Shown here: positions 10,781-49,357 of the stretch, piece by piece
How positions within the stretch are numbered: the first letter of the stretch is position 1
How the letters are laid out: each line of letters begins with the position of its first letter
Origin: Candidatus Doudnabacteria bacterium
GTDB taxonomy: Bacteria > Patescibacteriota > Doudnabacteria > UBA920
Direction of reading: 5' to 3'
NCBI GenBank assembly: GCA_963837465.1
Contig: CAWINB010000004.1
Location: 330,853 to 394,852 of the forward strand
Length of the DNA stretch: 64,000 bases
Made by a program: the position numbers and the translations under genes
The notes under the pieces: generated by a model
The model's input: the letters and a program-made list of their open reading frames with translations, nothing else
Database searches by the model: none
Told to the model about the DNA's origin: nothing

Positions 10781-10782
10781 CT

Positions 10783-18137: not shown

Positions 18138-19121
18138 ATGTTTTATAAGGAAAGTGTCGTAGAAACATCTACGAAAACCGACAGTAGGGTTTTGCCATCG
18201 TCCCCGGCTGTTTACAGCCCAAAGATGAGCGAGTTGGTTGATGGGTTTTTAAAGCACGGTCAGTTTGATTTAAGCTGGTCGGCTGGGACAGTCGCAAAAT
18301 ACGGTGAGTGTTTACGGATGACTATTCGGGACATCGGCGATTTGCCGGTAAATGAAATCCGTTTGGTTCACCTTACGGAATTAAAATCTAAAATAATAAT
18401 GCGCGGAGCCGGAGAGTCCAGAGTCGGCTCAATGGTTTTTGCGTTAAAAAGTTTTTTAAAATACTGCAAGGAAATTGTGGAGTTGGATGTGCTGGACTTT
18501 AACAAGATTACCCCGCCAAAACGCCATCGCCGGGAAGTGCTGTTTTTGACCAACGAAGAAATTCAGCGGTTTGTGGATGTTATAAAAATAAAAAATACCT
18601 GGGATGGGAAAAATAAAAAGAGTTGCGTCCGAATGGATGGTCTAAGGTTCAGGGCTTTGGTAGAAGTCTTGCTTGGCAGCGGTATGAGAATATCCGAGGC
18701 GTTATCGCTTAACCGGGGTAGTATAAATTTTGAAAAGAAAGAGGCAAAAATTATCGGTAAAGGTAGCAAGGAACGCACGGTATTTTTTAACGATCGTTCG
18801 TTGGAATGGGTTAGGTATTTATTGGAAGAAAGGAAGGACAGTCACGAACCTTTATTTCTTTCCCAAAAAGGCAACAGGTGGGATAAGGGAGAAGTTAATA
18901 AACTGTTTCAGCGTTATACTAAAAAAGCGGAAATCACCAAAAAATTAACGCCCCATATTCTGCGGCATACTATGGCCACAAACTTACTTTTTAACGGTTG
19001 CCCGATTTCCCACGTCAAAGAAATTTTAGGCCATGATAGGCTGGAAACCACGTGCCGCTACTATCTGGGTTTGGACAAGAGTAAGGCCAAGGAGGCTCAC
19101 GAAAAATTCTTGAATTATTAA
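18138..19121 (+). CDS. tyrosine recombinase/integrase, A-type paralog 1
   Basis: 327 aa: R...HxxR (HILRHTMATNLL)...Y (TTCRYYLG). ~60-70% similar to the recombinases at 34943-35929 and 47997-48968. Confidence 0.9.
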   Translation: MFYKESVVETSTKTDSRVLPSSPAVYSPKMSELVDGFLKHGQFDLSWSAGTVAKYGECLRMTIRDIGDLPVNEIRLVHLTELKSKIIMRGAGESRVGSMVFALKSFLKYCKEIVELDVLDFNKITPPKRHRREVLFLTNEEIQRFVDVIKIKNTWDGKNKKSCVRMDGLRFRALVEVLLGSGMRISEALSLNRGSINFEKKEAKIIGKGSKERTVFFNDRSLEWVRYLLEERKDSHEPLFLSQKGNRWDKGEVNKLFQRYTKKAEITKKLTPHILRHTMATNLLFNGCPISHVKEILGHDRLETTCRYYLGLDKSKAKEAHEKFLNY

Positions 19122-19169
19122 AAAAATTTATTGAATAAATAGCTCAATTTCGCTATAATTAGAATAATT

Positions 19170-19365
19170 GAATAGGTGCCTAACCCCATGGCTAAAACTA
19201 TGGGTATGGTAGAAGTAAAGAATCCTCAGCTACGTAAAGACGGTCTCTTAACCGCTCTCGTAGCTGAGGTGCGTGCGAAAGCATGCGGTGGTGTCGAAAG
19301 GCACTGCTGCGGTTGGGAGGCCCTTTTTGTATCCAACCGCAATTTAAAAACCTCAGCTACAACAA
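19170..19365 (+). promoter_or_regulatory. highly structured leader upstream of the Type III mod gene
   Basis: Series of hairpins: cccatgg...ctatggg; an 11-bp stem cctcagctacg...cgtagctgagg; GNRA-type loops gcgaaagc and tcgaaagg; gcggttgg...ccaaccgc. A second cctcagctac copy abuts the start codon. The 65-aa ORF here is probably spurious. Confidence 0.3.
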
Positions 19366-21255
19366 ATGAATAACAAATCACTGATTTTTGAATTGCCCAA
19401 AATTGTGGAAGAGGGCAAAAAAGAAGTTGAAAAAATATTGGAACGGCTTTCCAGTCAAAGTCGGTTAGGTTTGCAGACTAATGAGCTGGTTCTACCGGCA
19501 AAAGATAGTGGCGGGCTTTTTCGCGGGCATATAGCAGAACAGAAAAACAATGAGTGGCTGAATCGCTTAATATATGGCGATAATTTGTTAGCTATGCAGG
19601 CTTTGCTTTCCGGCGATGAGCAGAGCGGTCTTGCCAGTATGCGTGGGAAAATAGATTTAATTTACATTGATCCACCGTTTGATAGCAAAGCTGACTACCG
19701 CACAAAGGTTACCTTGCCTGGCGTGGATTTGGAGCAAAAGCCAACAGTTATAGAACAATTTGCATACGCCGATACTTGGAAAGATGGCACCGTAAGCTAT
19801 TTGAAAATGCTTTATCCTCGTCTTGCTTTAATGCGCGAGTTGCTCTCCGAACAAGGCAGTATTTATGTGCATATTGATTGGCACGTCGGGCATTATGTAA
19901 AAATTTTACTTGATGATATTTTTGGAAAAAATAATTTTAGGAACGAAATAATTTGGTGGTATCTTTGGGGAGGAAGAGGTAAGACACAATGGAATAGCAA
20001 ACATGATAATATTTTATTTTATTCCAAGGATAATAATTGGATTTTTAACTTTAAGGATGTATTAGATGATCACAATTTAATGACAGAAGGGTCAAAAAAT
20101 AGGTTGAATTACAAAGGTGCGATGGTAACTACCAAAAGCGAATCCTCAGAAATACCCGAAGATAAAGTGCTGCCTTCTGATACTTGGTATATAGCAACCA
20201 TTAATGCAATGGCAAAAGAAAAATTAAATTATGGTACTCAAAAACCAGAATCTTTGGTAGAAAAAATAATCAAAGCATCTTCAAATGAAAATTCCATTGT
20301 AGCAGATTTTTTTGCGGGGAGCGGGACAACTGGAGCGGTGGCGGAAAAACTTGGACGGAGGTGGATTATGTCGGATATTGGCAAGCCAGCGGCTTTGATA
20401 ATGCGCAAACGGTTAATTGACCAAAACGCCAAACCGTTTTTGTATCAATCCATCGGCGACTACCAAAAAGAAGCGTTTACCTCCTCAAAGTTATACCGCC
20501 GGGTTGGCGACCTGGCCCAGGTGGTATTGCAACTTTACGGCGCAATCCCTTTTACAGAAGACCAAAGCCAAATGCGAAATTTGGGGTATATAAAAGACAG
20601 TAAAACTTTGGTAATGGTGGATTCGCCGAATAAAATGACCGGCCTTGCCACGCTTAAAAAAGCGCAGGAGCTTAAAGCCAGTTTTATGGGCGGATTTAAC
20701 AAAGTGGTGGTCTTGGGCTGGAATTTTACTTTTGATATTACCGAAGCTATTCATTCGCTTAACGATAAAAGCGTGGAAGTTTTAGTTATACCCCCGGATC
20801 TGTTAGATAAGTTAAAGAGCAAAGCTGATTACAAAGACTTGATTGACAGCGGTAAAATTCGTTTTTCCTCTTTGCAATATCTGACTTTAAAACCAATTAC
20901 GGTAAAAATATTGCCGGATGATAAAGAACAGTTGCATGTTGAATTAGATAATTATGTTTTACTTTCCCCAGACAACATACCTTTGGACGAAAAGGACAAG
21001 GAAAAATTAAAAGAAGTCATTGCTAAAGATCCATTGTCTTTGGTTGAATATTGGAGCATTGATCCCGATTATGACGGAGTTACTTTTCGCAGCCTATGGC
21101 AGGATTATCGGGAAAATGAAGACAATGACGCAGAGCCTTACCATGTTGTAAAATCGGTAGATTTGACTGTCCCCAAAAAGAAAGAAAAAAGAATTGTATG
21201 CGTAAAGGTCGTGGATGTTTTTGGTTTTGAAAGTATTGCGACCGAGGAAGTTTAA
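19366..21255 (+). CDS. mod: Type III restriction-modification methyltransferase (Mod), beta-class N6A/N4C MTase
   Basis: 629 aa. [12 protein letters not shown] (motif IV, DPPF) precedes [23 protein letters not shown] (motif I, FxGxG); central variable TRD. Confidence 0.85.
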
Positions 21256-21258
21256 CAT

Positions 21259-24171
21259 ATGCCATCACCAATCAGCATAGGCACAAGGGACATTCCCTTA
21301 AAACTTGCCAAGACAATTAGTGAGAAAGTAAATTTAGCTTGGGACAGTGGAGAGTTTTTAGACAAGACCACGGCCGTTACTCAAGATTTGCTAAAATTTT
21401 GGTTTACCGAACCACACATAGAAAACCGATATATTAATTTTCACTCCGGCCAGCGCCAGGCTATTTTAAACACCATTTATTTGCACGAAATTTTAAGCAC
21501 GAAGTCCGTTAAAGATATTTACGAGAACATAGAATTTGAACTGTTGCCGGAAATAGACATAGCCGAGCTAAAAAAGCCAAAATACGAAATTCCCAAATAC
21601 GCTATTAAGATGGCAACCGGGACGGGCAAAACATGGGTGATGCACGCCTTGTTAATTTGGCAATATCTAAACGCCAAATATGAAGCCCAAAAATCAGGAA
21701 AGTTTTCCAAGAACTTTTTATTAGTCGCCCCCGGCATAATCGTCTACGAACGGCTGCTGGATGCTTATTTGGGTAAGGAAAATGAAAATCGGGAACGCCA
21801 ATTTGAGCAATCTGATTTTTACCAGTTTAAGGATTTGCTCTTGCCTCCGGCCTTTAGGGAAGAATTTTTTGGCTTTATCCAGTCGGCCGTAGCCAAGAAG
21901 CAGGACATCGGCAGCAAGGTGACTGGTGACGGCCTGATCGCCATTGCCAACTGGCATTTATTTATGGGGGAAGAAGAATCGGAAGACAAACCCGTTTCGC
22001 CATTAGACAGTCCACAACAAATCCTCAAAGACATCATGCCAATTCGGCCGGGAGTATCCGGCGGCAATTCTTTGGATGCTTTAGATAGTGCCTATTGGGG
22101 CGGCAAGGAATTGGATTATTTGGCCAATTTGCCGGATTTAGTTTGTATAAATGACGAGGCACACCACATCCACGAAAATAAAACCTACGGGGAAGTCAGC
22201 GAGGTGGAATGGCAAAAGAGCTTGAATAAAATTGCCGCCTCCAAAGGCCATAAATTCATGCAGATAGATTTTAGCGCCACCCCTTACGACGTAACCGGCA
22301 GCGGGCAAAATCGTATCAAGCATTACTTTCCCCACATCATTGTGGATTTTAAGCTAAAGACGGCCATAGACGGCGGCTTTGTAAAGACCATAGCCATAGA
22401 CAAGCGCAAGGAACTTGTGGATTTGCCTTTAGACTTTAAATCGGTACGGGACGAAAACAATACCGCTATTGCGCTCTCGGACGGGCAAAAGCTGATGATC
22501 CGTGCCGGATTAAATCGATTAAAAATTCTTGAAACGGAATTTGTTAAATTCACTAAAGATGCCGATGGGGTTTCCAATAAATATCCCAAAATGTTGATCA
22601 TGTGCGAGGATACTAAAGTTACGCCATTGGTTGAGGCTTTTTTTCTGGACGAAGGCTTAAGCGAGGACGAGGTGCTTCGGGTAGATTCCAATAAAAAAGG
22701 CGAGATACCGGAAACGGAATGGAGAGAACTTAAACAAAAATTATTTAATATTGATAAGCATGATAAGCCTAAAGTTATTATTTCCGTGCTCATGTTGCGT
22801 GAGGGTTTTGACGTAAATAATATCTGCGTTATTGTCCCGTTGCGTTCGTCCGCCGCCCCGATTTTGCTGGAACAGACTATTGGCCGTGGTTTGCGGCTGA
22901 TGTGGCGGGAGCCGGAATATCGTGAAGCCAAAATGGACAATATCCGGCAATTGATAAAAGAAAAACGGGAACCGCAAAACTTGCTGGACTTGCTGTTTAT
23001 TGTTGAGCATCCGGCGTTTTTGCAATTCTATGAGGATTTAGACAAAGAAAGCATCGTAGAAGTTGGTGACATACCAGAGGGAGGGGTGTTGGGGGAAATT
23101 ATTAAGGTTGGCTTAAAACCCGACTGGCAAAAATATGATATGTATTGGCCGATCATCTTGCGTGATGCGGAAGATGAAATGTCCGGCAGCCGTCCGCCGG
23201 TTGAAAAAATGGAAAAATTTACCGTTTATGCGTTGGAAGATTTAAAGAAGTTTTTTCATAAAGGCGGCGAAAAATTCGTGTCCGAGGAGTTAACCGTTAA
23301 AACCCGTTTTGGGGAGTACATGGTAGATGCCAGCCTGTTTACTTCCCAAAGCTATAATGAGTATTTGCAGAAAATAATCCACGCAGTAGTCAATAGGACG
23401 GCGAAGACAAGTGCACGTGGGCATAAAGTTTACCCGACGTTACAAATAAACCAACTGCAATTAGTTGAAGCTTTGGATTTTTATATCCGCAATCTGTTGT
23501 TTGGTAACTCATATGACCCGTTTGTTGATAATAATTGGAAAGTGCTTTTACTGAAGAATGGCGTTGTTACCCAGCATATCGTCAAAGAGGTGGGCAAACT
23601 AATTTTTGAAATGCAGAATAACACTACCACGAGCGAGGCATTGGTAGAAAAGCGCCATTTTGCCGAAGTGGACAGTTTGAGGATGAGGGAAAATTATTCC
23701 TTGCCGATTGTAAAAACTATTTACGAAAGATTGCGCTACCCTTCTAACAAAGGCGGTTTTGAAAAAGACTTTTTAAGCTATGCGGATGGCGACGGGCAGG
23801 TGGAGGCGATAATTAAAATCGAAGAATACCAGCACACCTTTGCCGTTATCAACTATATGCGTTCCGATGGTTTTCTCGCCCAATACCACCCGGACTTTTT
23901 AGTGCAGGCGGTCAATAAAATCTATGTTATTGAAACAAAAGCCGACAAAGACATTGACGATAAAAATGTCCGGCAAAAGCAGCTGGCTACGCTGGATTGG
24001 ATTAAGCGGATCAACGGGTTAAAAACCGAAGACAGATTAAAAAAAGAATGGGAATATGTTTTGCTAGGTCAAAGCAATTTTTACGGTTTAAGCAAAAACG
24101 GGGCTTCCATAACTGAAATTTGCGAATTAGCCAAGGTTAGCGAGGCTGCGGTGACCGGCAGGCTACTTTAG
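21259..24171 (+). CDS. res: Type III restriction enzyme Res subunit (SF2 helicase plus PD-(D/E)xK nuclease)
   Basis: 970 aa. Walker A MATGTGKT; DEAH box INDEAHHI; C-terminal HPDF...VIETKADKD. Start 4 bp after the mod stop. Confidence 0.85.
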   Translation: MPSPISIGTRDIPLKLAKTISEKVNLAWDSGEFLDKTTAVTQDLLKFWFTEPHIENRYINFHSGQRQAILNTIYLHEILSTKSVKDIYENIEFELLPEIDIAELKKPKYEIPKYAIKMATGTGKTWVMHALLIWQYLNAKYEAQKSGKFSKNFLLVAPGIIVYERLLDAYLGKENENRERQFEQSDFYQFKDLLLPPAFREEFFGFIQSAVAKKQDIGSKVTGDGLIAIANWHLFMGEEESEDKPVSPLDSPQQILKDIMPIRPGVSGGNSLDALDSAYWGGKELDYLANLPDLVCINDEAHHIHENKTYGEVSEVEWQKSLNKIAASKGHKFMQIDFSATPYDVTGSGQNRIKHYFPHIIVDFKLKTAIDGGFVKTIAIDKRKELVDLPLDFKSVRDENNTAIALSDGQKLMIRAGLNRLKILETEFVKFTKDADGVSNKYPKMLIMCEDTKVTPLVEAFFLDEGLSEDEVLRVDSNKKGEIPETEWRELKQKLFNIDKHDKPKVIISVLMLREGFDVNNICVIVPLRSSAAPILLEQTIGRGLRLMWREPEYREAKMDNIRQLIKEKREPQNLLDLLFIVEHPAFLQFYEDLDKESIVEVGDIPEGGVLGEIIKVGLKPDWQKYDMYWPIILRDAEDEMSGSRPPVEKMEKFTVYALEDLKKFFHKGGEKFVSEELTVKTRFGEYMVDASLFTSQSYNEYLQKIIHAVVNRTAKTSARGHKVYPTLQINQLQLVEALDFYIRNLLFGNSYDPFVDNNWKVLLLKNGVVTQHIVKEVGKLIFEMQNNTTTSEALVEKRHFAEVDSLRMRENYSLPIVKTIYERLRYPSNKGGFEKDFLSYADGDGQVEAIIKIEEYQHTFAVINYMRSDGFLAQYHPDFLVQAVNKIYVIETKADKDIDDKNVRQKQLATLDWIKRINGLKTEDRLKKEWEYVLLGQSNFYGLSKNGASITEICELAKVSEAAVTGRLL

Positions 24172-24192
24172 CATTATGGATTGTAAAAATTT

Positions 24193-24533: not shown

Positions 24534-24560
24534 ATTTAACAATCAAATTTAGATAAATTT

Positions 24561-26405: not shown

Positions 26406-26424
26406 CGTTTTACGCAAGAAAATG

Positions 26425-26502
26425 GGGCAATTAGGTTGCTGCCTTGGGATCTGGTTTGCTCATAGAGGGGTTATCCTGAAACCGGGCAGCACCCTAATTG
26501 CC
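26425..26502 (+). promoter_or_regulatory. long imperfect hairpin immediately 5' of the Rep-like gene (candidate origin or operator)
   Basis: gggcaattagg...cctaattgcc outer stem (10-11 bp) with inner stem tgctgcc...ggcagca. Confidence 0.3.
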
Positions 26503-26524
26503 TCTAAATAATCAAAATCCCTCT

Positions 26525-27703
26525 ATGATGATTGACAGTATACGTCTAAGAATTTCTATATTTAGTAGCGTGAAAAATAACTTCTTTTTTAGAGAAAAAA
26601 GAGGGAGCCTTGATTATGATAATAGTAATAGACAGAGGGTTAAACAATTTATACGAACCAATTTTAAGTGGAGCGAACAACAACGGTCTCAGGGTAAATA
26701 TATCCCAAAATATTGGACAGAAACCAACAGCTTTGAGGGCGGTAAACAGTATCTTATTTTTGAATTTTCAGTTCCAAAGTTCTTGCAGGGACATAATTTA
26801 GTCGAAATTGCAGAAACCATGCTGCCTGTCTTGGTGGATCGTCTCGAGGACTTCTGTAAAATAATTCAACTATCAGTTGCGGAGGTAGATATTTTGGGTG
26901 CGCAAGTCACGATGGTCGCATATTGTCATAATGTTCCGATAGCCCATCTGGCTCCTTCGCAAGAAGTTATGAAATTGTTATCTGGATATACCTATCGTTT
27001 TCGTTCTAAATTTCGGCCCGAGCAAAATGAATTGGGACAGATTACTCATTTACAACTCGGTAATAATACTTCCCATGTTACTGCTTATGATAAGTTGCCG
27101 GAGATTATAGTGCATGCCCGAACTACTGAGGAATTGGAAATTGCCAAAATAATTAAAAATAAACAGTTGCCAAATCCTTACGGAAAAATTATTCAAGACA
27201 CCATTAGGTTTGAGCTCACTTTACATAATACTGTGTCGGTAAGGCAAGCAATGAAAAAATTTTATGGTGACAAGCCTTTTTACACACTCAAGGATGTGTT
27301 CAAAGCCGATATTGCGGCGGCATTATTAAAGTTGGAAATGGAGGAAATTTATAATCACCCCCTTAAAAATATAGCTGCAAATTCTAATTATGACTTCCGA
27401 AAACTAAATGATGAGGTCGGTAAATTTATTCGAGACCGCCATCAGGACGGCAAACTGATTGGCTTGCTGGAACAGGCCACCCTTGTTCTACACGCCGGGG
27501 GCTGGGCGGCGGTCAGAACTTATTTAGCGAAAGGTTGTTGCCGCCGGACTTTGCAATACCGGATAGCTGAACTACGCGAAATAGAAAAAATTGGAATTAA
27601 TTTGGGAACGCCAAATGAAAAAATTATGGAATATATTTTAAACCAATTTGGCATTGGAAAAACTAATTTACTTCCTAAAGGCCAACAATTATTGTTTAGC
27701 TAA
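26525..27703 (+). CDS. candidate replication-initiation protein (Rep_trans/phage-CRI-like; low-confidence assignment)
   Basis: ~393 aa from MMIDSIRLRI... The N-terminal IDSIRLRIS resembles the conserved start of rolling-circle initiator families. The track start at 26498 is a TTG inside the hairpin. Confidence 0.4.
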   Translation: MMIDSIRLRISIFSSVKNNFFFREKRGSLDYDNSNRQRVKQFIRTNFKWSEQQRSQGKYIPKYWTETNSFEGGKQYLIFEFSVPKFLQGHNLVEIAETMLPVLVDRLEDFCKIIQLSVAEVDILGAQVTMVAYCHNVPIAHLAPSQEVMKLLSGYTYRFRSKFRPEQNELGQITHLQLGNNTSHVTAYDKLPEIIVHARTTEELEIAKIIKNKQLPNPYGKIIQDTIRFELTLHNTVSVRQAMKKFYGDKPFYTLKDVFKADIAAALLKLEMEEIYNHPLKNIAANSNYDFRKLNDEVGKFIRDRHQDGKLIGLLEQATLVLHAGGWAAVRTYLAKGCCRRTLQYRIAELREIEKIGINLGTPNEKIMEYILNQFGIGKTNLLPKGQQLLFS

Positions 27704-27789: not shown

Positions 27790-27870
27790 CACGTGCAATC
27801 TTTTGCACATTTTCACAGAGAATAATTGTGCAAGTTATAAAGCGCAGCTTAGGCAATATATGTGCAATCG
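27790..27870 (+). promoter_or_regulatory. TGTGCAA(T) repeat cluster upstream of B-type recombinase 1
   Basis: gtgcaat at 27793, inverted ttgcac at 27804, tgtgcaa at 27828, tgtgcaat at 27861. Confidence 0.35.
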
Positions 27871-27916: not shown

Positions 27917-28885
27917 ATGAGCCAGTTTAACCAAAACCCAGATCCTAATTTTATACAGCAGCCATCTGCTCCGGTTTTAGGTTTGCCGGTCGTAAATACC
28001 CCACAGCTTTTGACCTTTGAACAGTTGATCCCGTTGTTTGGCGATTACGTCACTTACGATTTGAATCATAGTCCTAAGACATCCAAAAAGTATGTCGAGG
28101 GGTTAAGGCATATTTTGAAAGACCTACCCTTTATAGTTTACCCCCAAGACTTAACGTTGCCGCATATTACGGAACTGAAGAAAAAAGTGCAGTTGCGTGG
28201 CGCAAAAGAGTCCCGAGTTAATAGTCTACTATTCTCATTGCGAAAATTTTTAACCTATTGTAACGAAGTCTATAAACTGGTTACAATAAATCCAAAGGAA
28301 ATTAAAGTTATGCGATTACCAAAAAGGGAAGTGGTGTTTTTGGCTCCTGCCGAAATTGAGCAATTTTTAAGCGCAATGGATACAACAACTTTGCCGGGAT
28401 TACGAATACGGACGCTTGTAGAGGTGCTACTTTCCACTGCTATGCGAATTTCCGAAGCCCTGTCGGTCAGCCGTGGGGACATTGACTGGGAGGGCAAGGA
28501 AATTGTCATTATAGGGAAAGGCAATAAGCAGCGGACGGTATTTTTAAGCGATAGGGCAATCGGTTGGCTTCAAACCTATTTACTCCGGCGTAAGGATAAT
28601 GACCCTGCTTTGTTCGTAACCTTTGGCGAACCCAAACGCTTGTCGCCTTATGACTTGTCTAAGCAGTTTAAGCACTATGCTGAAAAAGCAGGATTAAAGA
28701 AAAAAGTAACACCCCATATTTTACGCCATACGGCCGCGACAACCATGTCCCATAACGGCGCGGACATTCGTAACATTCAGCTAATTTTAGGCCATAGCGA
28801 CATTAAAACAACCGCCAAATATTACTTAGGCGTGGACAAAGAGGCTTTAAAGGAAGCCCATAAAAAGTTTCTAAAATACGATTAG
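27917..28885 (+). CDS. tyrosine recombinase, B-type paralog 1
   Basis: 322 aa: ...IIGKGNKQRTVFL...FVTFG...HILRHTAATTM...TTAKYYLG. Distinct subfamily from the A-type copies. Confidence 0.9.
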   Translation: MSQFNQNPDPNFIQQPSAPVLGLPVVNTPQLLTFEQLIPLFGDYVTYDLNHSPKTSKKYVEGLRHILKDLPFIVYPQDLTLPHITELKKKVQLRGAKESRVNSLLFSLRKFLTYCNEVYKLVTINPKEIKVMRLPKREVVFLAPAEIEQFLSAMDTTTLPGLRIRTLVEVLLSTAMRISEALSVSRGDIDWEGKEIVIIGKGNKQRTVFLSDRAIGWLQTYLLRRKDNDPALFVTFGEPKRLSPYDLSKQFKHYAEKAGLKKKVTPHILRHTAATTMSHNGADIRNIQLILGHSDIKTTAKYYLGVDKEALKEAHKKFLKYD

Positions 28886-34587: not shown

Positions 34588-34675
34588 CAATTAAATTGAT
34601 CTTTTAAATTTTTAATACAGTAGTAGTTTGTCAGGCAATTTCCGTTTACAACGGCTCAGAAACACCTCCTTTCTA
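34588..34675 (+). repeat. right-arm repeat X copy 1 with the 16S-end core (CACCTCCTTTCT at 34664-34675)
   Basis: aattgatcttttaaatttttaatacagtagtagtttgtcaggcaatttccgtttacaacggctcagaaacacctcc is near-identical to 51785-51865. Confidence 0.8.
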
Positions 34676-34942
34676 AGGAATAAATATGCAGCCTTAAACT
34701 TTTCGAAGTTTATGTTGTTGCACATTCCAGTGGTCGTCATCTTCTATTTCGATAGAAGGTGCACATACTCTAACGATTGAACGTAAACGAACGGTTTTGT
34801 AAAAGGTAATTCTACCCTTATTTTCGCAAGATTATAAGGAGTCTCAACGCCTTAAATGTTGGGAGTCACTATTTAGCCGTTAAGGGAACTTAACGAAATT
34901 GCAAATAAAAGCCTCGTCATCAGCAATGATAACGAGGTTTTT
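34676..34942 (+). repeat. element-arm repeat copy 2 (upstream of integrase A2)
   Basis: Same conserved blocks as 17873-18137. Hairpin variant ccttattttcgcaagattataagg. Confidence 0.65.
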
Positions 34943-35929
34943 ATGTATGAGGTTAATTCGGTAGAAAGAGTCGCAAAAGGTGGAATTGCGGCGACAGTCA
35001 GCCCCGCCGCTCCTATCGGCACAAAGATTAGCACTTTGGTGCCGCAATTCTTGGCTTATGGCCAGTATGACCTGTCCTTTGCCGCAGGCACCATAGAGAA
35101 ATACCGCGATAGCCTAAACGTCTTTATGCGGGACGTTGGGGATTTGCCCGTAGAGGAATTAAACTTTGGGCATTTTACTTTGCTGAAACAAAAAATTATG
35201 GAAAGGGGGTCGGGGGTCTCACGCATAGCGGGCGTGGTCTTTGCGATGAAAAGTATGTTAAAGTTTGCTACCGACGTATTGGAGATGCAGATTTTGGATT
35301 ATAAGAAAATCAGAGCGCCGAAGCGGCGCAGGCGGGACGTAGTTTATTTAACCAATGCCGAAATCCAGCAGTTCGTTGACAGCATAAAGTTTGAAAAATG
35401 CTGGACGGGCAATACCCGTAAAAAGGGCATCAGCGTCCACCGCCTGAGGTTTCGGACTTTGGTTGAAGTCTTGCTTGGCACGGGGATGCGTATAAGCGAA
35501 GCATTGTCGCTTACAAGGGATGTTATAAACTTTGAAAAAGGCGAGGCTAAGATAATCGGCAAAGGAAGCAAGGAGCGCACAGTGTTTTTTAACGAACGGG
35601 CTTTGTATTGGATTAAGTTTTATTTGGAACAGAGAAACGACGACAATCCCGTTATATTTTTAAACCGAAAAGGCAAGCCGCTGGACAGGGGCGATGCCGA
35701 TACTTTGTTTAAGCGTTACGCAGAAAGGTCAGGTATAACTAAAAAATTAACGCCGCACATTTTGCGGCACACGATGGCGACGAATCTGCTTTTTAACGGA
35801 TGCCCGATTGGCCATATTAAGGAAATCCTCGGACACGACCGATTAGAGACAACTTGTCGTTATTATTTGGGCTTAGACAAAGATAAAGCTAAAGAAGCCC
35901 ACGGCCAATTTTTAAATTACGAACAATAA
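34943..35929 (+). CDS. tyrosine recombinase/integrase, A-type paralog 2
   Basis: 328 aa: LRFRTLVEVLLGTGMRISEALSL...KIIGKGSKERTVFFNE...HILRHTMATNLLFNGCPI...TTCRYYLG. Confidence 0.9.
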   Translation: MYEVNSVERVAKGGIAATVSPAAPIGTKISTLVPQFLAYGQYDLSFAAGTIEKYRDSLNVFMRDVGDLPVEELNFGHFTLLKQKIMERGSGVSRIAGVVFAMKSMLKFATDVLEMQILDYKKIRAPKRRRRDVVYLTNAEIQQFVDSIKFEKCWTGNTRKKGISVHRLRFRTLVEVLLGTGMRISEALSLTRDVINFEKGEAKIIGKGSKERTVFFNERALYWIKFYLEQRNDDNPVIFLNRKGKPLDRGDADTLFKRYAERSGITKKLTPHILRHTMATNLLFNGCPIGHIKEILGHDRLETTCRYYLGLDKDKAKEAHGQFLNYEQ

Positions 35930-38582: not shown

Positions 38583-39614
38583 ATGCAAAATACAGCAGTA
38601 GCAACTATGAACCCGCCTATGCTGGCGGTTGCAGAAGACTTGTCGCCGATAGAAATTGTCTATTTGGCCACAAGCGAGATTCGGCCTGATAAAAATCAGC
38701 CCCGTAAATCTCTAGACAGTAAGAAAATTAAGGAAATGGCGGAAAGCATTAAGGCCGTTCGGGGGATTATAAATCCCATCGAAGTCGACCAAGACTATAT
38801 TATTGTTACGGGACAGCTCCGCTGGGAAGCCGCTAAGGTGGCGGGGTTAGAAAAAGTGCCGTGCAAAATAATAGAAATCAGCGATGAGGAGCGCTTCCGC
38901 AGGCAAGTAGTGGAAAACTTGCACCACAACGTGATGAGCGATATGGATATTGCTAAAGCATTTGCTAAGATGCTTAACATTCTACCTGGTAGCAGGTTGC
39001 AGGGAAAAGACGCTGGCCTTAGCCGCTTGGCTGAAGATATTGGTAAAAGCGTGGACTACATCAGCCAGCATTTAGACCGATTGGAAGACTCTGGGCGCAT
39101 TCAGGAAGCTTTGAGTTCGGGAAAAATTTCTTTTACCCACGCAAGAGAGACAAAGAAAGTTCCCGCTGGCTTCAGGGAAGCCGTAGAGAAAAAAATGCTG
39201 GCGGGCGAGTTTCCCCATAGCGGTTCCATAGCGGAATTGGCTAAAGGCTTAAAGAGGAATCCAGATAAAGCCGACCAAATTTTGGCATTTAATTTTACGG
39301 AGTTAAAGTCGCCTGAGGAAGTTAAACAGGCAGTATCCAAAATTGCATCTCCTGCGGCGGATGCTTCGGGGGCAGTAGAGGAATTCAATAGAATTATAAA
39401 TGGGCTTATGCACTGGCTTGAAAACACCCCGTCGTCCTATGCCGCTGAACACCCCGAATTGAAAATCAACCAAACGCTAACCAAGCTCGGCAAGGAGATT
39501 AAGAAATGGCTGAAAAATCTGAAAGAATTTCAGGCTCGAGCGGAAGTTAAGGGGCAGACGATGTTGGATATGGATATCCCCGAAATAACAGTAGATGATA
39601 TCCCCGAATTCTAA
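38583..39614 (+). CDS. ParB/Spo0J-like N-terminal domain protein (partition/nuclease-like)
   Basis: IEIVYLATSEIRPDKNQPRK...INPIEVDQDYIIVTGQLRWEAAKVAGLEKVPCKII matches the ParB N-terminal box. Confidence 0.65.
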   Translation: MQNTAVATMNPPMLAVAEDLSPIEIVYLATSEIRPDKNQPRKSLDSKKIKEMAESIKAVRGIINPIEVDQDYIIVTGQLRWEAAKVAGLEKVPCKIIEISDEERFRRQVVENLHHNVMSDMDIAKAFAKMLNILPGSRLQGKDAGLSRLAEDIGKSVDYISQHLDRLEDSGRIQEALSSGKISFTHARETKKVPAGFREAVEKKMLAGEFPHSGSIAELAKGLKRNPDKADQILAFNFTELKSPEEVKQAVSKIASPAADASGAVEEFNRIINGLMHWLENTPSSYAAEHPELKINQTLTKLGKEIKKWLKNLKEFQARAEVKGQTMLDMDIPEITVDDIPEF

Positions 39615-39632: not shown

Positions 39633-40682
39633 ATGAACAATATGACAACCTTCACTAAACAGTGGACTTCCAATAGGCCTAGAATTTTCGGGGTCTTTGG
39701 GAAAACCCAGCAGGATGACACATTTGAAATTTTAATTCCAAAATTTCTTGACTACGCCCAATTTGATTTGAAACTGGCCAAAGAGACCATCGGAAAATAC
39801 AAAGAATCTTTGGGTTGGGTGACAAGGTATCTGCCCGACGTGGAACGCCCCGCCCAAATGACGCTGGAAGATGTTACCCGAATTAAAAAGCAGGTGGCAA
39901 TGCGTGGCAATAGCGAGGCTCGGACTAACTCCATTATCTTCGCCTTGCGGAAGTTTTTGGACTATTGCGGCAAGCGGATGCAGATTGAAACCATTGACCC
40001 AAAGACCATAGAGCCGCTGAAAATCCCCAAGCGGGAAGTTATCTACCTTAACAAGGACGAGATAAAAAATCTGCGTGATGTATTTGACTTAGCCAACAAG
40101 CGGGAGTTCCGAATGCGGGTGCTGGTGGAATTTCTGCTCGGCACGGGAATGAGAATCTCTGAAGCGCTATCGGTCAATCGTGAGCAGATTAATTATGACA
40201 GCAAGGAAATAAAAATTGTCGGCAAGGGCAACAAGGAGCGCACAGTTTTTGTTTCCGATGATGCCTTAGGCTGGATAAAAAGGTATCTGGATACCCGCAC
40301 GGATGACAATCCTGCTGTCTTTATAACCTTTGGCGAGCAAGAAAGGTTAAGGCGGGGCGACTTGGCAGAATTATTAAGAGGTTATGGAATAAAAGCGGGG
40401 CTACAGAAGAAAGTTACGCCGCATATCTTGAGACACTCATCGGCAACCACGATGATGCGGAAAGGCTGTCCTCTGCCTTACATCCAGCAGTTGCTCGGCC
40501 ACGCCGACATTAAAACGACCGCCAAATATTATCTTGGCGTTGATAAACAATCCGTCAAAGATGCTCACGAAAAATATCTTAAGTTCGACCACCACCGTTT
40601 GGGAATGGCGGCACCTGTGCGTAAAGGTATTGACTTGGATAGCTACCTTGAGTATTTCTCGGCCTATCTTCCGAAAGAGTAG
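39633..40682 (+). CDS. tyrosine recombinase, B-type paralog 2
   Basis: 349 aa: ...KIVGKGNKERTVFV...FITFG...HILRHSSATTMM...TTAKYYLG. Confidence 0.9.
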   Translation: MNNMTTFTKQWTSNRPRIFGVFGKTQQDDTFEILIPKFLDYAQFDLKLAKETIGKYKESLGWVTRYLPDVERPAQMTLEDVTRIKKQVAMRGNSEARTNSIIFALRKFLDYCGKRMQIETIDPKTIEPLKIPKREVIYLNKDEIKNLRDVFDLANKREFRMRVLVEFLLGTGMRISEALSVNREQINYDSKEIKIVGKGNKERTVFVSDDALGWIKRYLDTRTDDNPAVFITFGEQERLRRGDLAELLRGYGIKAGLQKKVTPHILRHSSATTMMRKGCPLPYIQQLLGHADIKTTAKYYLGVDKQSVKDAHEKYLKFDHHRLGMAAPVRKGIDLDSYLEYFSAYLPKE

Positions 40683-43614: not shown

Positions 43615-43623
43615 AAAATCTTT

Positions 43624-43806: not shown

Positions 43807-43817
43807 TTCTAGAAATT

Positions 43818-44237: not shown

Positions 44238-44241
44238 ATTT

Positions 44242-44856
44242 ATGCCTGAAAGACCAGCCCCCGAAGAGTTTAATAGGCCAATAGAAAGTCGGCAAGACCA
44301 AACTACGCCGATAGAGTTTCCGCACGCCGAAGCTGGCTTGGAGGCTTACCTTAAAGAGTATCCAAACGAAGCGTCCAGAGCGGAAAAGTTACGAGCCGTG
44401 TTCCAAGAGTTTTTACAGCGGGAAATAAAAAACATAAAAATATTCAAATCAGAACAGCTTGGTGCCGAATTGCCGTATACTTCTATTAAGATTGGGGAAT
44501 TAGCAAGAAGCATTTACAAAAAATACGCTGAGGCAGACAGTTTACCTGTTGAAGCCCCCGATGTCGCACCAGTGGCTCAAGAATTTGTATTTAATTCAGC
44601 CTTGTCCACGGATGAGGGTAATGAGTTTAACTTTGTAGAGGAGGCTATGCACGAAGCCGTTAAACATTTGCCCGCCGCTCTTAAAGCACTTAGAGAGGGC
44701 AAAGCTCCCGAAGAACGGGAAGTTTTTACTCTTGGTATGCCAACTAATGTATTAGGCAGGGTGTCGCCCGAACTGGCGGACAGAATAAACAAAGAACCTT
44801 TTGAGGAATTGGGCAAAGTCTTTGCTGAATTGGTAAAAGCAGAGAATGCGAGCTAA
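44242..44856 (+). CDS. hypothetical protein
   Basis: 204 aa, acidic, helical. Confidence 0.4.
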   Translation: MPERPAPEEFNRPIESRQDQTTPIEFPHAEAGLEAYLKEYPNEASRAEKLRAVFQEFLQREIKNIKIFKSEQLGAELPYTSIKIGELARSIYKKYAEADSLPVEAPDVAPVAQEFVFNSALSTDEGNEFNFVEEAMHEAVKHLPAALKALREGKAPEEREVFTLGMPTNVLGRVSPELADRINKEPFEELGKVFAELVKAENAS

Positions 44857-45817
44857 AGCAATAAAATTTCAAGGCGTATCTTTGAGTAGCAATATAGCAA
44901 TTAGAACGGCAGAAAATTTAGTTGAAAAAGGCTTGGTTACTCAAGACTTTGCCGTAGCCGAAAAAGACCATTTGCCGTATTTGCAAATTGAAGCCGAGGT
45001 TCCCGTTTCCCTTAGCCCGTCTAAAATAAAAGCCCTGCAAGTGCCAGTTGGTTTTTTTGCCGATGCTTTAAAAGAAAGAAAGTTGCCAGAAGTCAAAAGG
45101 ATAGAAGCTGGTAAGCCGCAGTTTGGAAAAGATGTAAATGAGGTGTTAGCCCAAAGGGGTATACACGAGCAAATGGCTGATGACCAAAAGAAGACTAAGC
45201 GTGGGGTCATACTTGATATACTCAAAAAGGTTGGCAACACTTTTAAGCCAAAACCTGAAACAAAAATTACCACCCTTTATGGTTTAAATGATTTAACCAC
45301 CAAGTCGCCGTCTATGGTTAAAGCGGCAAAAGTCCGCAAGCAGGAATTTGGCGGCACGCTTGGCCAAAACCTTTTGGAAAGGGCTAAGCCCAACGAAAGA
45401 GTGTTTACTGCCGAAATGATGCACCTTAGTCCTCGGTTTAGAAAAACTCAGCTAAGAAGAATGCGGGTGCTTGCTATAACTTTAGAAGATTTGGAACAGG
45501 GTAAAAATTTATTAGAGGTAGCACCAGAGCATATACCAACCCCCGAAGAAGTAAATTTGGTTTTTAGGGAACTAATAGGCAAGGAATACAGGGAAGTGCG
45601 TAAACGAGAAGACGAGCAAGGTCTTTACTTGTTAGAGGTGGAAGTTGCTGGAGAAGCGGAAGGTGAAATTACCGAATACGCTTATATGCGAAAAGGCCGT
45701 TATGCGGAAGGTCAAATTTCGGCAACCGAAATTCACGTTACTTATTACAAGGACGGCAAACCCGTAAGCGGAACATCGGCGGCAAGGTATGTTGATGGGG
45801 AATGGAGAATTCTTTAG
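44846..45817 (+). CDS. hypothetical protein
   Basis: 323 aa; overlaps the previous gene. Confidence 0.4.
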   Translation: MRAKAIKFQGVSLSSNIAIRTAENLVEKGLVTQDFAVAEKDHLPYLQIEAEVPVSLSPSKIKALQVPVGFFADALKERKLPEVKRIEAGKPQFGKDVNEVLAQRGIHEQMADDQKKTKRGVILDILKKVGNTFKPKPETKITTLYGLNDLTTKSPSMVKAAKVRKQEFGGTLGQNLLERAKPNERVFTAEMMHLSPRFRKTQLRRMRVLAITLEDLEQGKNLLEVAPEHIPTPEEVNLVFRELIGKEYREVRKREDEQGLYLLEVEVAGEAEGEITEYAYMRKGRYAEGQISATEIHVTYYKDGKPVSGTSAARYVDGEWRIL

Positions 45818-45849
45818 TAATAGCATAAAAATGCCAATTTAGTTTTCCT

Positions 45850-46056
45850 ACAAAAAGCTATTAAAACTCAATCGGCTAATTTAGGCTCTTAAACAATAGT
45901 GGGTAGCACAGAGGGTAAACTTTGGGAGGGGATAACTGTGTTGCTACAACTTTTTGTAATCGCTAACATCTGTGTAAGACTTTAAAAATTAAATATCTTT
46001 GCTGACCGAAGCGTAGTGCAGGAATTATTTTTTTACACCTCGGATTAAACACCTCC
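45850..46056 (+). repeat. right-arm repeat Y copy 1 ending in CACCTCC (46050-46056)
   Basis: ctattaaaact.aatcggct...aaacaatagtggg...ggtaaactttggaggggataact.tgttgcta...cgctaacatc...tttaaaaattaaatatc...ttacacctcggattaaacacctcc is shared with 47510-47727. Confidence 0.75.
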
Positions 46057-46124
46057 ATACGGCTACAACTTCCTCACTTAGCAAAAATCGCCCAAAAGGC
46101 GGTTTTTTTTGTTATAATTTAACT

Positions 46125-47486
46125 ATGCACGAACCAACTGAACCTAATAATCAACCCTGTCCAGGTTGTGGCTATCCAGCTCAAGCTGGCCACGCTCCTA
46201 ATTGCCCTACTGTCAGCAAAGGCGAAAAGGAAAAAAACCTTGAAGGAGTAGAAGCAAGGAAGTATACGGCCGAGGATATACAAAATTTTCAGGGTGAATT
46301 ATCACAATTTGAAAAAATGCGTAAGGCTGATAATGCCAACTACGTCTTTGATTTTACCGAGTATTACCAATTTTTAACCCAGCACAAAAAATCTCAAGAA
46401 CGACCTTTTACACAAAGAGATGTTTCGACACCTGGCTATCAAGATTTGGAAGTTGGCATATTCAAAGGCTGGAAACAAAATTTGTTAGCCAAAAAAGACA
46501 AACTCATCCAGTCACGACCAAAATTAGCACCGATTATCGGAATGCTAGAGAGCGAGCCTACGCCAAAAACCTTAGATGAACTTCGGGATTTGTTTAGAAA
46601 ACATCCCGACTTAAATGAATTTGGCGCAGTCCAATACCAAGACGGCGTGGGAGAACAGGGAGAAAAGAAAAGCGGATTTTTGCATATCAATATGTCCCGC
46701 TATAACGGCTATGAATACGAACTACCCAAGACGGATACCAGAGTTTACTTAAACCCGCCACCCGAAGCTATACCGCAAATATCTATGGAGCTTTGTAATA
46801 TAGCACAGGCTAAAAGATTTCCGTTATATTTTAAAACCATAGATTATTCTTTTCAAAAACCCAATCCCGACAACACCAACAGGCTGGATAAGTTTATTGT
46901 TTATACAGACAAGGCGCACGTGACCGCTCTCTCCCAAGAATTAAAAACTTTGCAAAGCAAACATCCCGAATGGTTTAACGGCAGAGAATTGCCAACTATG
47001 GTTGCCAAAATGGGCGAGGGCGTGGGAGTAGCGGAAGACCCTAACGAACAACAAATGCAAAAGTTTGGCGAGCGTGGCAAGTCATTTAACGGTATGAGGG
47101 CTTTATTTTTAAAGGATGTTTGGACGGGTGTGACAAAAGACATTATCTTAGCGCAACGGACTTGGCGGCCAAGAGGCGGTAGGACTATGGAAGAAATTTT
47201 TAATGATAATCTAAAAGCTGGGCTAACTCGTAGGCAGTTACAGCCTAATGTGATAGCCGATGTTATCGGCAAGGCTTGGGCGGCACAATTAGATAGTTCA
47301 AGAATGGGAAGTCTTCCCGACAGCAGAATAGCAGATGAAGTTGATAATGCCGTGGCAAGAACTATGGCTGATGTAATTCCTAACATTACCCCTGATTCCT
47401 TGCAACCAGCCGTGCAAAACCAAATCAACAAAAAAGCAAAGGATTATTTTATTAACCCTAATAATTTAGCTTTTAATCAAATTTAA
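46125..47486 (+). CDS. hypothetical protein with N-terminal Cys-rich (CPGCGYPAQAGHAPNCP) zinc-ribbon
   Basis: 453 aa; the only gene in a 1.7-kb segment bounded by two copies of repeat Y. Confidence 0.5.
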   Translation: MHEPTEPNNQPCPGCGYPAQAGHAPNCPTVSKGEKEKNLEGVEARKYTAEDIQNFQGELSQFEKMRKADNANYVFDFTEYYQFLTQHKKSQERPFTQRDVSTPGYQDLEVGIFKGWKQNLLAKKDKLIQSRPKLAPIIGMLESEPTPKTLDELRDLFRKHPDLNEFGAVQYQDGVGEQGEKKSGFLHINMSRYNGYEYELPKTDTRVYLNPPPEAIPQISMELCNIAQAKRFPLYFKTIDYSFQKPNPDNTNRLDKFIVYTDKAHVTALSQELKTLQSKHPEWFNGRELPTMVAKMGEGVGVAEDPNEQQMQKFGERGKSFNGMRALFLKDVWTGVTKDIILAQRTWRPRGGRTMEEIFNDNLKAGLTRRQLQPNVIADVIGKAWAAQLDSSRMGSLPDSRIADEVDNAVARTMADVIPNITPDSLQPAVQNQINKKAKDYFINPNNLAFNQI

Positions 47487-47509
47487 GGGATTATGGCCAG
47501 TTTAGTTTT

Positions 47510-47732
47510 TGTATAAGAATCTATTAAAACTAAATCGGCTTTAAACAATAGTGGGCGGTAGTGGGGGTAAACTTTGGAGGGGATAACTTTGTTGCTAAAA
47601 AATTTTACTGCCGCTAACATCCGAGTAGCAATTTAAAAATTAAATATCATCGCTGTAAGCGAGCTTGAAAATAAATAGTGGGAGCGAGTGGGGGTGAACA
47701 ACTTTACACCTCGGATTAAACACCTCCTTTCT
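47510..47732 (+). repeat. right-arm repeat Y copy 2 with full core CACCTCCTTTCT (47721-47732)
   Basis: See 45850-46056. Contains tandem ACACCTC half-sites (ttACACCTCgg and aaACACCTCct). Confidence 0.75.
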
Positions 47733-47996
47733 AAGGAACAATATGCACCCTTTTCCCTTTTCGAAGGGGAATGTTGGTTCACATTCCGTAGGTCGTCGTT
47801 AATTTTTTCGAAAATTAGCGCACTTCTTGAAACTTCAAAGAACGACGTAAACTGGTGGTTTTGTAACGGTAATTCTACCGTATTTAGCAATAAATACGGC
47901 CTAAGCGCCATTAATGCTTGGGATCACTATTTAGCCGTTAAAGGTTAAACACGAAATTGCAAAGAAAGTCTCGGCCGTTATGGTGCGAGGCTTTTT
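47733..47996 (+). repeat. element-arm repeat copy 3 (upstream of integrase A3)
   Basis: Same conserved blocks. Hairpin ccgtatttagcaataaatacgg (compensatory change versus copy 1 ccatattt...aaatatgg). Confidence 0.65.
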
Positions 47997-48968
47997 ATGT
48001 TCTATGCAAAAACGTCACTTGAATCAACCGCTAAAGTAGGAACTTTAGCGCCAATCTCCAATGATTTGACAATGAGCCAGCTCATTCCAATGTTTTTAAA
48101 GTACGGTCAGTTTGAATTAATGTTCTCACAGAACACGCTCACCAAATACGACGAGTGTTTAAAATGGGTTGTTAGGGACATCGGCGATTTGAAGGTCACG
48201 GAGTTAAGCCTGTTCCATTTTACCGAGTTAAAACAGATAATAACTAACCGTGGTTGCGGCACCAGCCGCGTTGCTTCCATGGTGTTCTCCATGAAGAGTT
48301 TCCTTAAGTATTGCAAGGACTATCTAGAGCTGCCGGTCATGGATTACAAAAAGATAAGGTCGCCGCGGTTTAAGCGCCGTGAAGTGATTTATTTAACTAA
48401 CGAAGAGATTGAGCAGTTTGTCAGCGCCATTAAAATAGAGAATGGCCCTCGTGCCATAAATTCGGTACGTATGGATGGCCTAAGGTTTCGGGTACTGGTG
48501 GAAGTCTTGCTCGGCACCGGCATGCGCATTTCTGAAGCCTTGTCGCTTAACAGGGATATGGTTGATTTTGAAAAGGCCGAAGCCAAGATTATAGGCAAAG
48601 GCAGCAAAGAACGTACAGTATTTTTCAGCGAGCGGTCGCTTGATTGGGTCAAGCGTTATCTATCCCTGCGTACAGACAATGAACCCGCTTTGTTTCTCAC
48701 CCAGCAGAATACGCGCCTGTCCAAGATAGATGTGCCCGGCTTCTTTAAACGGTACAGCAAGAAGGCCGGTATAACGAAGAAACTGACACCGCACGTGCTC
48801 AGGCATACCTGTGCTACGAACCTCTTGTTTAACGGCTGTCCCATAAACAATGTTCAAGTAATTTTAGGGCATGACCGGCTGGAAACCACCTGTCGCTATT
48901 ATCTCGGTGTTGACAAAACAAAAGCCAAAGAGGCACATGGCAACTTTTTAAATTATCAATTGTCGTAA
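47997..48968 (+). CDS. tyrosine recombinase/integrase, A-type paralog 3
   Basis: 323 aa: LRFRVLVEVLLGTGMRISEALSLNRDMVDFEKAEAKIIGKGSKERTVFFSE...HVLRHTCATNLLFNGCPI...TTCRYYLG. Confidence 0.9.
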   Translation: MFYAKTSLESTAKVGTLAPISNDLTMSQLIPMFLKYGQFELMFSQNTLTKYDECLKWVVRDIGDLKVTELSLFHFTELKQIITNRGCGTSRVASMVFSMKSFLKYCKDYLELPVMDYKKIRSPRFKRREVIYLTNEEIEQFVSAIKIENGPRAINSVRMDGLRFRVLVEVLLGTGMRISEALSLNRDMVDFEKAEAKIIGKGSKERTVFFSERSLDWVKRYLSLRTDNEPALFLTQQNTRLSKIDVPGFFKRYSKKAGITKKLTPHVLRHTCATNLLFNGCPINNVQVILGHDRLETTCRYYLGVDKTKAKEAHGNFLNYQLS

Positions 48969-49357
48969 TTTAGATACTTTGCGTGCGCGGCTTTCAGCGC
49001 GCGTTTATCGGTGCCCAGATAATACTGGGCCGTGGTGCGAATGTCCGAGTGCCCCAAGAGTTCCTGGATATAGCGGATGTCGCAACCGTTTTCCAGCATG
49101 ATCGTCGCGGCCGTGTGCCGCAGCGTATGCGGCGTGACTTTTTTCTTGATCCCGGACTTGGCCGCATACCTGCGGAATTCCTTGCCCAGGTCATAGCGGG
49201 CAAGCCGCTTGGCTTTGCCGAACGTCACGAAAAGGGCCAGGTTGTCATCGGTTCGGCTTTGCAGATACTTATTTATCCATTCCAAAGCGCGATCGCTTAT
49301 GAAAATTACCCGTTCCTTGTTGCCTTTGCCGATTATGGTAGCTTCTTTGGTTTGCAA
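48956..49357 (-). pseudogene. B-type tyrosine recombinase, C-terminal fragment (N-terminally truncated)
   Basis: 133 aa: ...IIGKGNKERVIFIS...FVTFG...HTLRHTAATIM...TTAQYYLG. Lacks the N-terminal two-thirds. Abuts the IS256-type transposase fragment. Confidence 0.8.

Follow-up and report, generated by a model that had tools for sequence, protein, structure and literature searches.

Paired Xer-like tyrosine recombinases as a probable recombination module of integrative elements at the 16S rRNA 3' end in Candidatus Doudnabacteria

Behind the 16S rRNA gene of a Candidatus Doudnabacteria genome lies a tandem array of integrative elements that encode two types of tyrosine recombinase, here called A and B. 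The array falls within a 64,000-nucleotide stretch of contig CAWINB010000004.1 (positions 330,853 to 394,852 of the forward strand), hereafter the window. A and B are best explained as a co-inherited pair, the recombination module of elements whose insertion site is the 16S 3' end. Most site-specific elements work with a single integrase, usually assisted by a small directionality factor, and have tRNA or protein genes as their targets. In the proposed system, elements aimed at the best-conserved part of the 16S rRNA gene would be served by a conserved pair of Xer-like enzymes. Neither integration at the 16S end nor a recombinase pair of this kind was found described in the papers searched, among which few subscription journals are represented.

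The A genes of the window begin at 18138, 34943 and 47997, and the B genes comprise those at 27917 and 39633 together with a remnant at 48956-49357 (Table 1). All six open reading frames (ORFs) match the Pfam family Phage_integrase (PF00589) above its cut-off (E 1e-30 to 1e-40), and five are intact. An earlier note on this DNA, made from the sequence alone, had counted six recombinase genes in 31 kb and an A-then-B order in each element; both observations are borne out. The A proteins of the window are 59-63% identical among themselves. Between A and B the full-length identity is 41-42% in the window and 41-46% over the family. The GKGNK, FVTFG and TTAKYYLG signatures that the note had ascribed to B are present in the B sequences, while a C-terminal KEAHxKFLxY tail is common to both types. 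The catalytic residues R, K, H, R, H and Y are kept across the A, B12 and b9 clades, and judged by these residues both enzymes look catalytically competent; the truncated third B lacks the region of the first Arg. An arm-binding domain is probably absent from A and B, given their length and domain hits. Each element has two recombinases, either 3.7-8.8 kb apart on the same strand or convergent. In element 3 the B remnant is convergent with A, overlaps it by 13 nt and is 92.5% identical to the B of a related locus, L200. DNA homology of this region to the intact L200 stops at 49411, beside a 5'-truncated transposase ORF of the insertion sequence (IS) family IS256 at 49209-50210, which confirms the remnant and IS256 fragment that had been noted there. 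The opposite strand of the remnant is ancestral and not a by-product of the IS, because the pair of L200 is likewise convergent and also overlaps by 13 nt.

The attachment (att) core of the elements is the 3' end of 16S rRNA itself, CACCTCCTTTCT, anti-Shine-Dalgarno sequence included. Read from the sequence, the final bases of the 16S gene are CACCTCCTT(TCT), and these are the target core. A copy of CACCTCCTTTCTAAGGAA stands 277-280 nt ahead of each of the three A starts in the window, in agreement with the earlier placement of A next to an att core, and its 19-mer class has 3 matches in the window against 0.03 expected. The 9-mer AACACCTCC, with AA before CACCTCC, is found at 34661, 46048, 47719, 51857 and 59934 (5 matches, expected 0.35), and the CACCTCC(TTTCT) repeats accordingly start at 34663, 46050, 47721, 51859 and 59936; the 16S gene ends at 17870 and the first A gene starts at 18138. 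Behind the 16S gene the cores mark off five tandem units over 42 kb, and three of these units hold recombinases. The three-element picture of the earlier note survives for the units with recombinases; it had missed that there are five core-bounded units in all and that the core is the end of the 16S gene. The sequence after the last core differs (TTCGCAC...) and is followed by a gene of the LytR/CpsA/Psr (LCP) family. We regard this stretch as the native flank; L198 has the same LCP gene behind its last core.

The same arrangement recurs in other genomes. The A-then-B layout recurs, around unrelated cargo, in at least seven further elements from genomes of other Patescibacteria (Candidate Phyla Radiation, CPR). 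A precedes B on the same strand in elements 1 and 2 of the window and in L001, L002, L010 (the type of L201 and L202), L084 and L199, and the convergent layout is found in element 3 and in L200, directly behind its 16S gene, with L083 similar. Between element 1 and its closest relatives only A and B are conserved, joined in one case by retroelement genes, and the cargo differs. Two Doudnabacteria assemblies (L006 and L009) carry an A-type gene about 280 nt past a complete 16S gene, and the flank of L006 is syntenic with window positions 7000-14000, so the host of the window array is related to that group. In L001, L002, L003 and L010, all labelled Saccharibacteria, the contig opens with the last 1-45 nt of 16S and continues into A, and the same 16S-end placement is seen in L084, L086, L089, L199 and L200. 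An integrase beside a stable-RNA 3' end and an end repeat at the distal boundary are both present in the window and also in L001-L003, L006, L009, L010, L084, L089, L199 and L200. Soil relatives labelled Acidobacteria, Solibacteraceae and Syntrophorhabdaceae have an identical core of 17-18 nt placed 200-280 nt before an A-like gene. The soil partner gene is either convergent with A and abutting it, or lies 0.1-0.4 kb before the next core and reads into that core. These soil units keep the pair without a recognisable replication gene, and hold only a Dam-like methylase and unknown genes.

Phylogeny and co-divergence support old pairing. In a neighbour-joining (distance) tree of 192 non-identical members from about 160 loci, built without support values, 10 CPR B sequences form a clade whose sister is the soil partner clade (23 sequences), and the A clade (84 sequences) is sister to these two combined. 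The Xer-like clade that belongs to the host group itself (cluster 1; 61 sequences) falls outside the A and B clades. The union of CPR B and soil partners dates the pairing to before the CPR/soil split. Across 12 paired elements the pairwise identities of A track those of B (r=0.95, Mantel p=2e-4), and the correlation holds within CPR alone (r=0.93). The set includes two element lineages in the same genome. With the layout recurring around different cargo and the A and B distances co-varying in this way, the two-recombinase module that the earlier note had described holds up.

On these sequence grounds A and B are old sister lineages of one Xer-like family. The "different subfamilies" of the earlier note hold as two distinct types but overstate the difference, since A and B are not separate families in the manner of Xer and phage integrase. 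The best model matches of both are XerA, XerC and XerD at 146-190 bits, far under the equivalog cut-offs of 220-335; A1 scores 158 bits with TIGR02224 and 145 bits with TIGR02225, and B1 scores 169 and 169, against cut-offs of 335 and 330. The nearest solved structure is XerD (1a0p). Scores with the integron integrase model TIGR02249 are 84.5 and 95.3 bits, from partial model matches and far under the cut-off of 265, and in place of an attC cassette array the window has multi-gene units, three of them with an integrase of their own. A single-copy chromosomal dif system does not describe the window either, where three A and three B genes stand in 31 kb, in core-bounded elements beside 16S. A phage origin was considered and rejected, as relatives in the viral collection reach 37% identity at most and include no circular ones, and plasmid relatives were likewise rejected, the best matches being about 32% identical, to annotated XerC/XerD.

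What B does for the element is a separate question. We lean, if only slightly, towards a role for both enzymes at the same 16S-end core, where they would form a XerC/XerD-like hetero-complex or a FimB/FimE-like direction-specific pair; this preference is drawn from gene layout and sequence. B would act at the same core as A. It might supply the other subunit of a hetero-complex, with one strand pair exchanged by each enzyme as in XerC/XerD, or be a paralogue with the other directional bias, one enzyme serving integration and the other excision, comparable to FimB and FimE at the single invertible site of the Fim system. A would be read away from the core and, in the integrated state, would lie behind the rRNA promoter. 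In the CPR elements B is usually the last gene of an operon, after replication, partition or other DNA-processing genes, so B would be made when the element is active. Several points favour a core role for B: the soil partner beside the core, a 2.4-kb unit of L106 that has only a B-like gene between the same bounding cores, the co-divergence with A, the lack of any other conserved non-coding site, the soil units that keep the pair with no recognisable replication gene, and the second kind of pair that many soil loci carry.

Other observations weigh against this reading. No core half-sites assignable to two different proteins were found, and only a 6-bp dyad, CTCCTT/AAGGAG, is evident in the core. 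In the CPR elements B lies kilobases from both ends, right after a Rep, ParB, PrimPol-helicase or primase gene, a placement that fits a maintenance role. Among the 10 integrase-bearing units with two bounding cores, seven hold both types, which speaks for the pair, two hold A only (L003 36-5958 and L012 9705-16806) and one holds only the B-like gene; the related loci were gathered partly with A- and B-derived patterns, and such co-occurrence counts carry an ascertainment bias. The A-only and B-like-only units imply that neither enzyme is strictly needed in cis, and an obligate hetero-complex would then require supply in trans from neighbouring units. Finally, neither 16S nor any Rfam family lies within 10 kb of the soil cores in seven loci, so the link to 16S is established for the CPR loci and L086 only.

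The genes before B suggest another function, namely that B is a plasmid-type recombinase of multimer resolution or maintenance. A would excise the element, the circle would replicate and B would resolve dimers at an internal site, with no part in integration. A replication or partition gene stands directly before B in four contexts: the Phage_CRI Rep-like gene of element 1, the ParB-like gene of element 2 (with a gap of 19 nt), a gene for a PrimPol-AAA_25 helicase in L011 and a DnaG-like primase gene in L196. The four (T)GTGCAA/TTGCAC copies before B1 and the ParB gene before B2 had been pointed out in the earlier note, which had raised a role of this kind. Xer-like enzymes are the classical dimer resolvases, and the A-only units show that A may suffice for integration. 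Elsewhere, however, the gene upstream of B is not a replication gene. An HTH_17 protein and a third integrase take this place in L001, L002, L198 and L199, and a TerL-like ATPase does so in L081. The soil pairs do without a recognisable replication gene, in soil relatives the B-like gene lies beside the 16S-type core, and one unit between the same cores has a B-like gene alone. No conserved non-coding site lies beside B, and the intergenic gaps on either side of B are only 3-36 nt in L002, L196 and L199. Alignment of eleven regions downstream of B yielded only promoter-like TTGACA/TATAAT, and the B-specific core site whose presence near each copy had been suggested was searched for and not found. 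We regard plasmid-type resolution by B as possible but rather unlikely.

A second alternative, also raised in the earlier note, makes B the integrase of an independent element that sits inside the A element or has fused with it, so that each unit would be a composite of two integrating units. Such a composite would account for the occurrence of both A-only and B-like-only units, for the separate replication gene of the B half of element 1 and the conserved hairpin at the start of that half, and for the further integrase and excisionase-like HTH_17 gene beside B in L001, L002, L198 and L199. No 16S-type core, even a degenerate one with as many as 4 mismatches in the 17-mer, was found from A to B or from B to the right end in six elements (expected 0-0.35), and direct and inverted repeat searches of both elements found no credible private repeats around B. 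The 13-nt overlap of the convergent genes leaves no space for an att site, and the tight co-divergence of A and B extends to two elements of the same genome. With no core copy and no B-flanking repeats, B is part of the element and not a nested element. Att duplications of its own around B, the mark of an independent nested element, were looked for without result, and the module stands; a nested origin is highly improbable.

The two gene layouts raise one more possibility, that B is a DNA invertase which flips an internal segment and so yields the convergent and the co-directional arrangements. The layouts do differ by inversion of a segment that starts with B, and both proteins are weakly similar to tyrosine-type invertase models. 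The scores of 29-47 bits are far under the cut-offs of 221-222, no credible inverted repeats bracket the segment, and the two layouts belong to different element lineages and are not variants of one lineage. There is little to recommend an invertase, and we give it a very low probability.

The elements seem to bring a 16S trailer of their own. Every A leader has TCACTATTTAG some 205 nt past the core, at 18066, 34866 and 47924 in the window and also in the leaders of L001, L002, L006, L009, L010, L012 and L196. The complementary sequence stands in the host leader, some 300-360 nt ahead of the 16S gene (window 15982, L006 7006 and L009 7834). The helix comprises 20 and 23 perfect pairs in L006 and L009, a length that none of 200 shuffles reached in a longest-helix test; this test replaced RNA duplex folding of long leader and trailer stretches, in which the background was too high. 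The window helix has one mismatch, and its 14-bp perfect run is not significant alone (22 of 200 shuffles). A second complementary block, GTACAAAACCA / TGGTTTTGTA, joins the window 16S leader to the leaders of elements 1 and 3, while the native flank behind the last core has no such complement to the 16S leader. As the element leader complements the 5' leader of the host 16S gene, it very probably contributes the 3' side of the stem in which pre-16S is processed, much as tRNA-targeting islands restore the end of their tRNA.

After the core every leader continues with TAAGGAG and then a hairpin, whose stem is varied yet complementary and whose loop is TTCGAA or ATTTCGAT. In many elements TTGACA...TGTCAA flanks this hairpin, which may be either a signal for RNA processing or a DNA site.

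These results permit a broader proposal, which we offer tentatively as possible rather than probable. A and B would form a hetero-recombinase that is obligate and encoded by the element, in effect a mobile version of XerC/XerD specialised for the anti-Shine-Dalgarno end of 16S. The family would cross phyla (CPR, probably Acidobacteriota and others), insertion would be harmless through the element's own 16S trailer with its strand that closes the pre-16S stem, and tandem accretion would be one cause of the separation of 16S and 23S genes.

Among known systems, XerC/XerD offer the closest sequence and structure matches. Both systems consist of two paralogues of similar divergence and simple enzymes, and identity to annotated XerC/XerD is about 32%. 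In contrast to XerC/XerD, A and B reside on mobile elements in several copies per genome, use the 16S end and not dif or cer as their site, and occur in a host group that has its own Xer-like clade. Genomic islands at tRNA and tmRNA 3' ends share the integrase beside a stable-RNA end, the restored end, the partial copy at the far boundary and the tandem arrays, but the present elements differ in the 16S target with its anti-Shine-Dalgarno sequence, the two recombinases, the Xer-like enzymes and the surrogate 16S trailer. FimB and FimE of Escherichia coli, two paralogous tyrosine recombinases, share a single site and differ in directional bias there. Their task is the inversion of a promoter segment and not the integration of an element, and A and B are only weakly similar to invertase models.

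Two different tyrosine recombinases are also core genes of Tn554 (TnpA/TnpB) and of the Vibrio intA/intB elements. Tn554 has its recombinase genes together at one end, along with further core genes. The strand-biased circularizing integrative elements of Vibrio have the same clustering at one end and additional core genes (PMC9345347). The spacing and orientation of A and B vary by comparison, and no extra conserved protein gene accompanies them. Recombinase-in-trio (RIT) elements likewise carry several distinct tyrosine recombinases as one unit, and the third integrase that abuts B in L001, L002, L198 and L199 recalls them. The present elements differ in having two recombinases and not three, outside a tandem block, and no RIT-type terminal inverted repeats were seen. 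A and B are members of neither XerC/XerD nor IntI nor RIT, whose defining features were tested for and not found. The design combines 3'-end stable-RNA integration and tandem accretion with Xer-like catalysis and two recombinases per element.

If the hetero-complex or the direction-specific duo is real, the pair would be a compact system without accessory arm sites, and genome engineering could take an interest in it, as essentially every bacterium has the target. The accumulation of large islands beside the rRNA gene in tiny CPR genomes would be explained as well, and accretion of this kind may explain unlinked 16S and 23S genes.

Table 1. Positions of recombinase genes, core copies, units and neighbouring features. 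Positions refer to the window unless a related locus (L number) is named.
Feature	Position	Strand	Remarks
16S rRNA gene	16287..17870	+	Rfam RF00177, 1274.6 bits, model positions 1-1533 (complete)
Core copy 1 (CACCTCCTTTCTAAGGAA)	17861..17878	+	16S 3' end joined to element 1 left end
Core copy 2	34663..34680	+	element 1 right end and element 2 left end
Short core, CACCTCC only	46050..46056	+	element 2 right end; opens 1.67-kb unit without recombinase
Core copy	47721..47738	+	element 3 left end
Short core	51859..51865	+	element 3 right end
Last core (CACCTCCTTTCT)	59936..59947	+	native flank, then LCP family gene at 60018
Predicted empty site			GGATCACCTCCTTTCTTTCGCAC; junction expected without inserted elements
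Element 1	17871-34669		recombinases A and B
Element 2	34670-46056		recombinases A and B
Unnamed 1.67-kb unit	46057-47727		no recombinase; one HopA1-like gene
Element 3	47728-51865		recombinase A and B remnant
Unnamed 8-kb unit	51866-59942		no recombinase; IS3 remnants, SocA/Panacea pair, metabolic genes
A1, element 1	18138..19121	+	327 aa; PF00589 E 9.6e-40; clade A15; catalytic R-K-H-R-H-Y
A2, element 2	34943..35929	+	328 aa; PF00589
A3, element 3	47997..48968	+	323 aa; PF00589; 96.6% identical to L200 A
B1, element 1	27917..28885	+	322 aa; PF00589 E 1.3e-40; clade B12; catalytic residues intact
B2, element 2	39633..40682	+	349 aa; PF00589
B3 remnant, 3' part only	48956..49411	-	ORF 48956-49357, 133 aa C-terminal; PF00589 E 1.4e-30
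IS256-family transposase ORF, 5'-truncated	49209..50210	+	PF00872 E 1.7e-66, Transposase_mut profile positions 119-377 of 379; at B3 break
Element 1 leader	17871..18137	+	hairpin with TTCGAA loop; TCACTATTTAG at 18066, complementary to 16S 5' leader at 15982
Leader complementarity spans	15972-15992 vs 18063-18083, 34863-34883, 47921-47941; L006 6999/9913; L009 7824/9871		
Post-core leader hairpins	17880-17930, 34690-34730, 47745-47790		also in all related leaders
Structured hairpin	26424..26508	+	opens gene block ending in B1; -47.2 kcal/mol, z -6.25
Rolling-circle Rep-like gene (Phage_CRI)	26498..27703	+	PF05144 E 1.4e-06; directly upstream of B1
Four (T)GTGCAA/TTGCAC repeats	27793..27869	+	between Rep-like gene and B1
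ParB-like gene	38583..39614	+	PF02195 E 4e-18, PF17762; stops 19 nt before B2
HTH_17 and third recombinase	L001 7239-8800; L002 6376-7946; L198 8437-9998; L199 6670-8231		
Diversity-generating retroelement (DGR)	target gene 29129-29806; variable repeat 29654-29782; template repeat 30148-30276; Avd 30276-30644(-); reverse transcriptase 30674-31717		
LOOT RNA (RF03000)	689-802, 19177-19305; L003 4399-4512; L011 3083-3202; L012 13342-13459(-)		
Defence and addiction cargo	19366-24171, 40824-42873, 33726-34040, 50383-51779, 54526-55627		type III restriction-modification, Dcm methylase and PstI-like enzyme, BrnT toxin, AbiEi/AbiEii, SocA/Panacea pair
Two further transposase-like genes upstream of 16S	2825-3872(-), 14183-15469(-)	-	one split over two ORFs; other 428 aa with rve domain
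Second-kind pair loci	L007, L090, L094, L097-L099, L103, L105, L107, L117, L118, L120, L122, L123, L129, L134, L145		

Within the array, 42 kb of mobile DNA part the 16S gene from the apparent native flank, and no 23S gene lies within the window. Both recombinase-free units open with CACCTCC-NTNCGGCTACA, and these units could be satellites or decayed units. The CACCTCC-NTNCGGCTACA junction (46050, 51859) was considered as a B-type site and dismissed, being absent elsewhere in about 200 loci; it looks like a degenerate second right end. The right ends at 34594-34669 and 51790-51865 are identical over 76 nt, although the A genes of elements 1 and 3 are only 63% identical, and the right end of element 2 (45833-46056) is similar over about 225 nt to 47496-47727 in the following small unit. 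Shared right ends suggest recombination or conversion among them. The idea that element 3 is a chimera with an L199-like tail was abandoned, as DNA similarity does not extend past the right end of 76-89 nt.

A second kind of pair, from A sub-clades 14 and 16, occurs in tandem or convergent in soil metagenome contigs (Table 1). These loci are without the CACCTCCTT core and presumably use another target. Pairs look like a general habit of this recombinase family.

The block of genes that ends in B1 opens with an 85-nt hairpin, whose homologues in L001 (~7143-7230), L002 (~6276-6365), L198 (~8340) and L199 (~6570) show compensatory changes. The hairpin loop CAUAGAGGGG is complementary to CCCCUCUAUG in two start regions, one belonging to the gene at 24979 and the other to the Rep-like gene (26525). 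This arrangement resembles plasmid antisense or pseudoknot control of rep translation, and the hairpin has no Rfam entry. The repeats before B1 are 7-mers of which about 0.03 copies are expected by chance in 213 nt, and we infer that they are Rep iterons or an operator. In close relatives of element 1 a third, divergent tyrosine recombinase of 368 aa and an excisionase-like HTH_17 gene abut B, and element 1 holds its Rep-like gene where those relatives hold these two genes.

Element 1 contains a complete diversity-generating retroelement (DGR) at 29129-31717, in which every mismatch within the repeat falls on a template adenine. The linkage of B followed by a DGR is also seen in L002/L012, L081, L198 and one Joint Genome Institute (JGI) contig. 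LOOT RNA lies directly behind the first A gene and recurs inside related elements; to our knowledge it is known from metagenomes only, and it appears to be cargo of the 16S-end element family. The islands of the window hold restriction-modification systems, toxin-antitoxin pairs and the DGR, and defence and addiction genes dominate the cargo.

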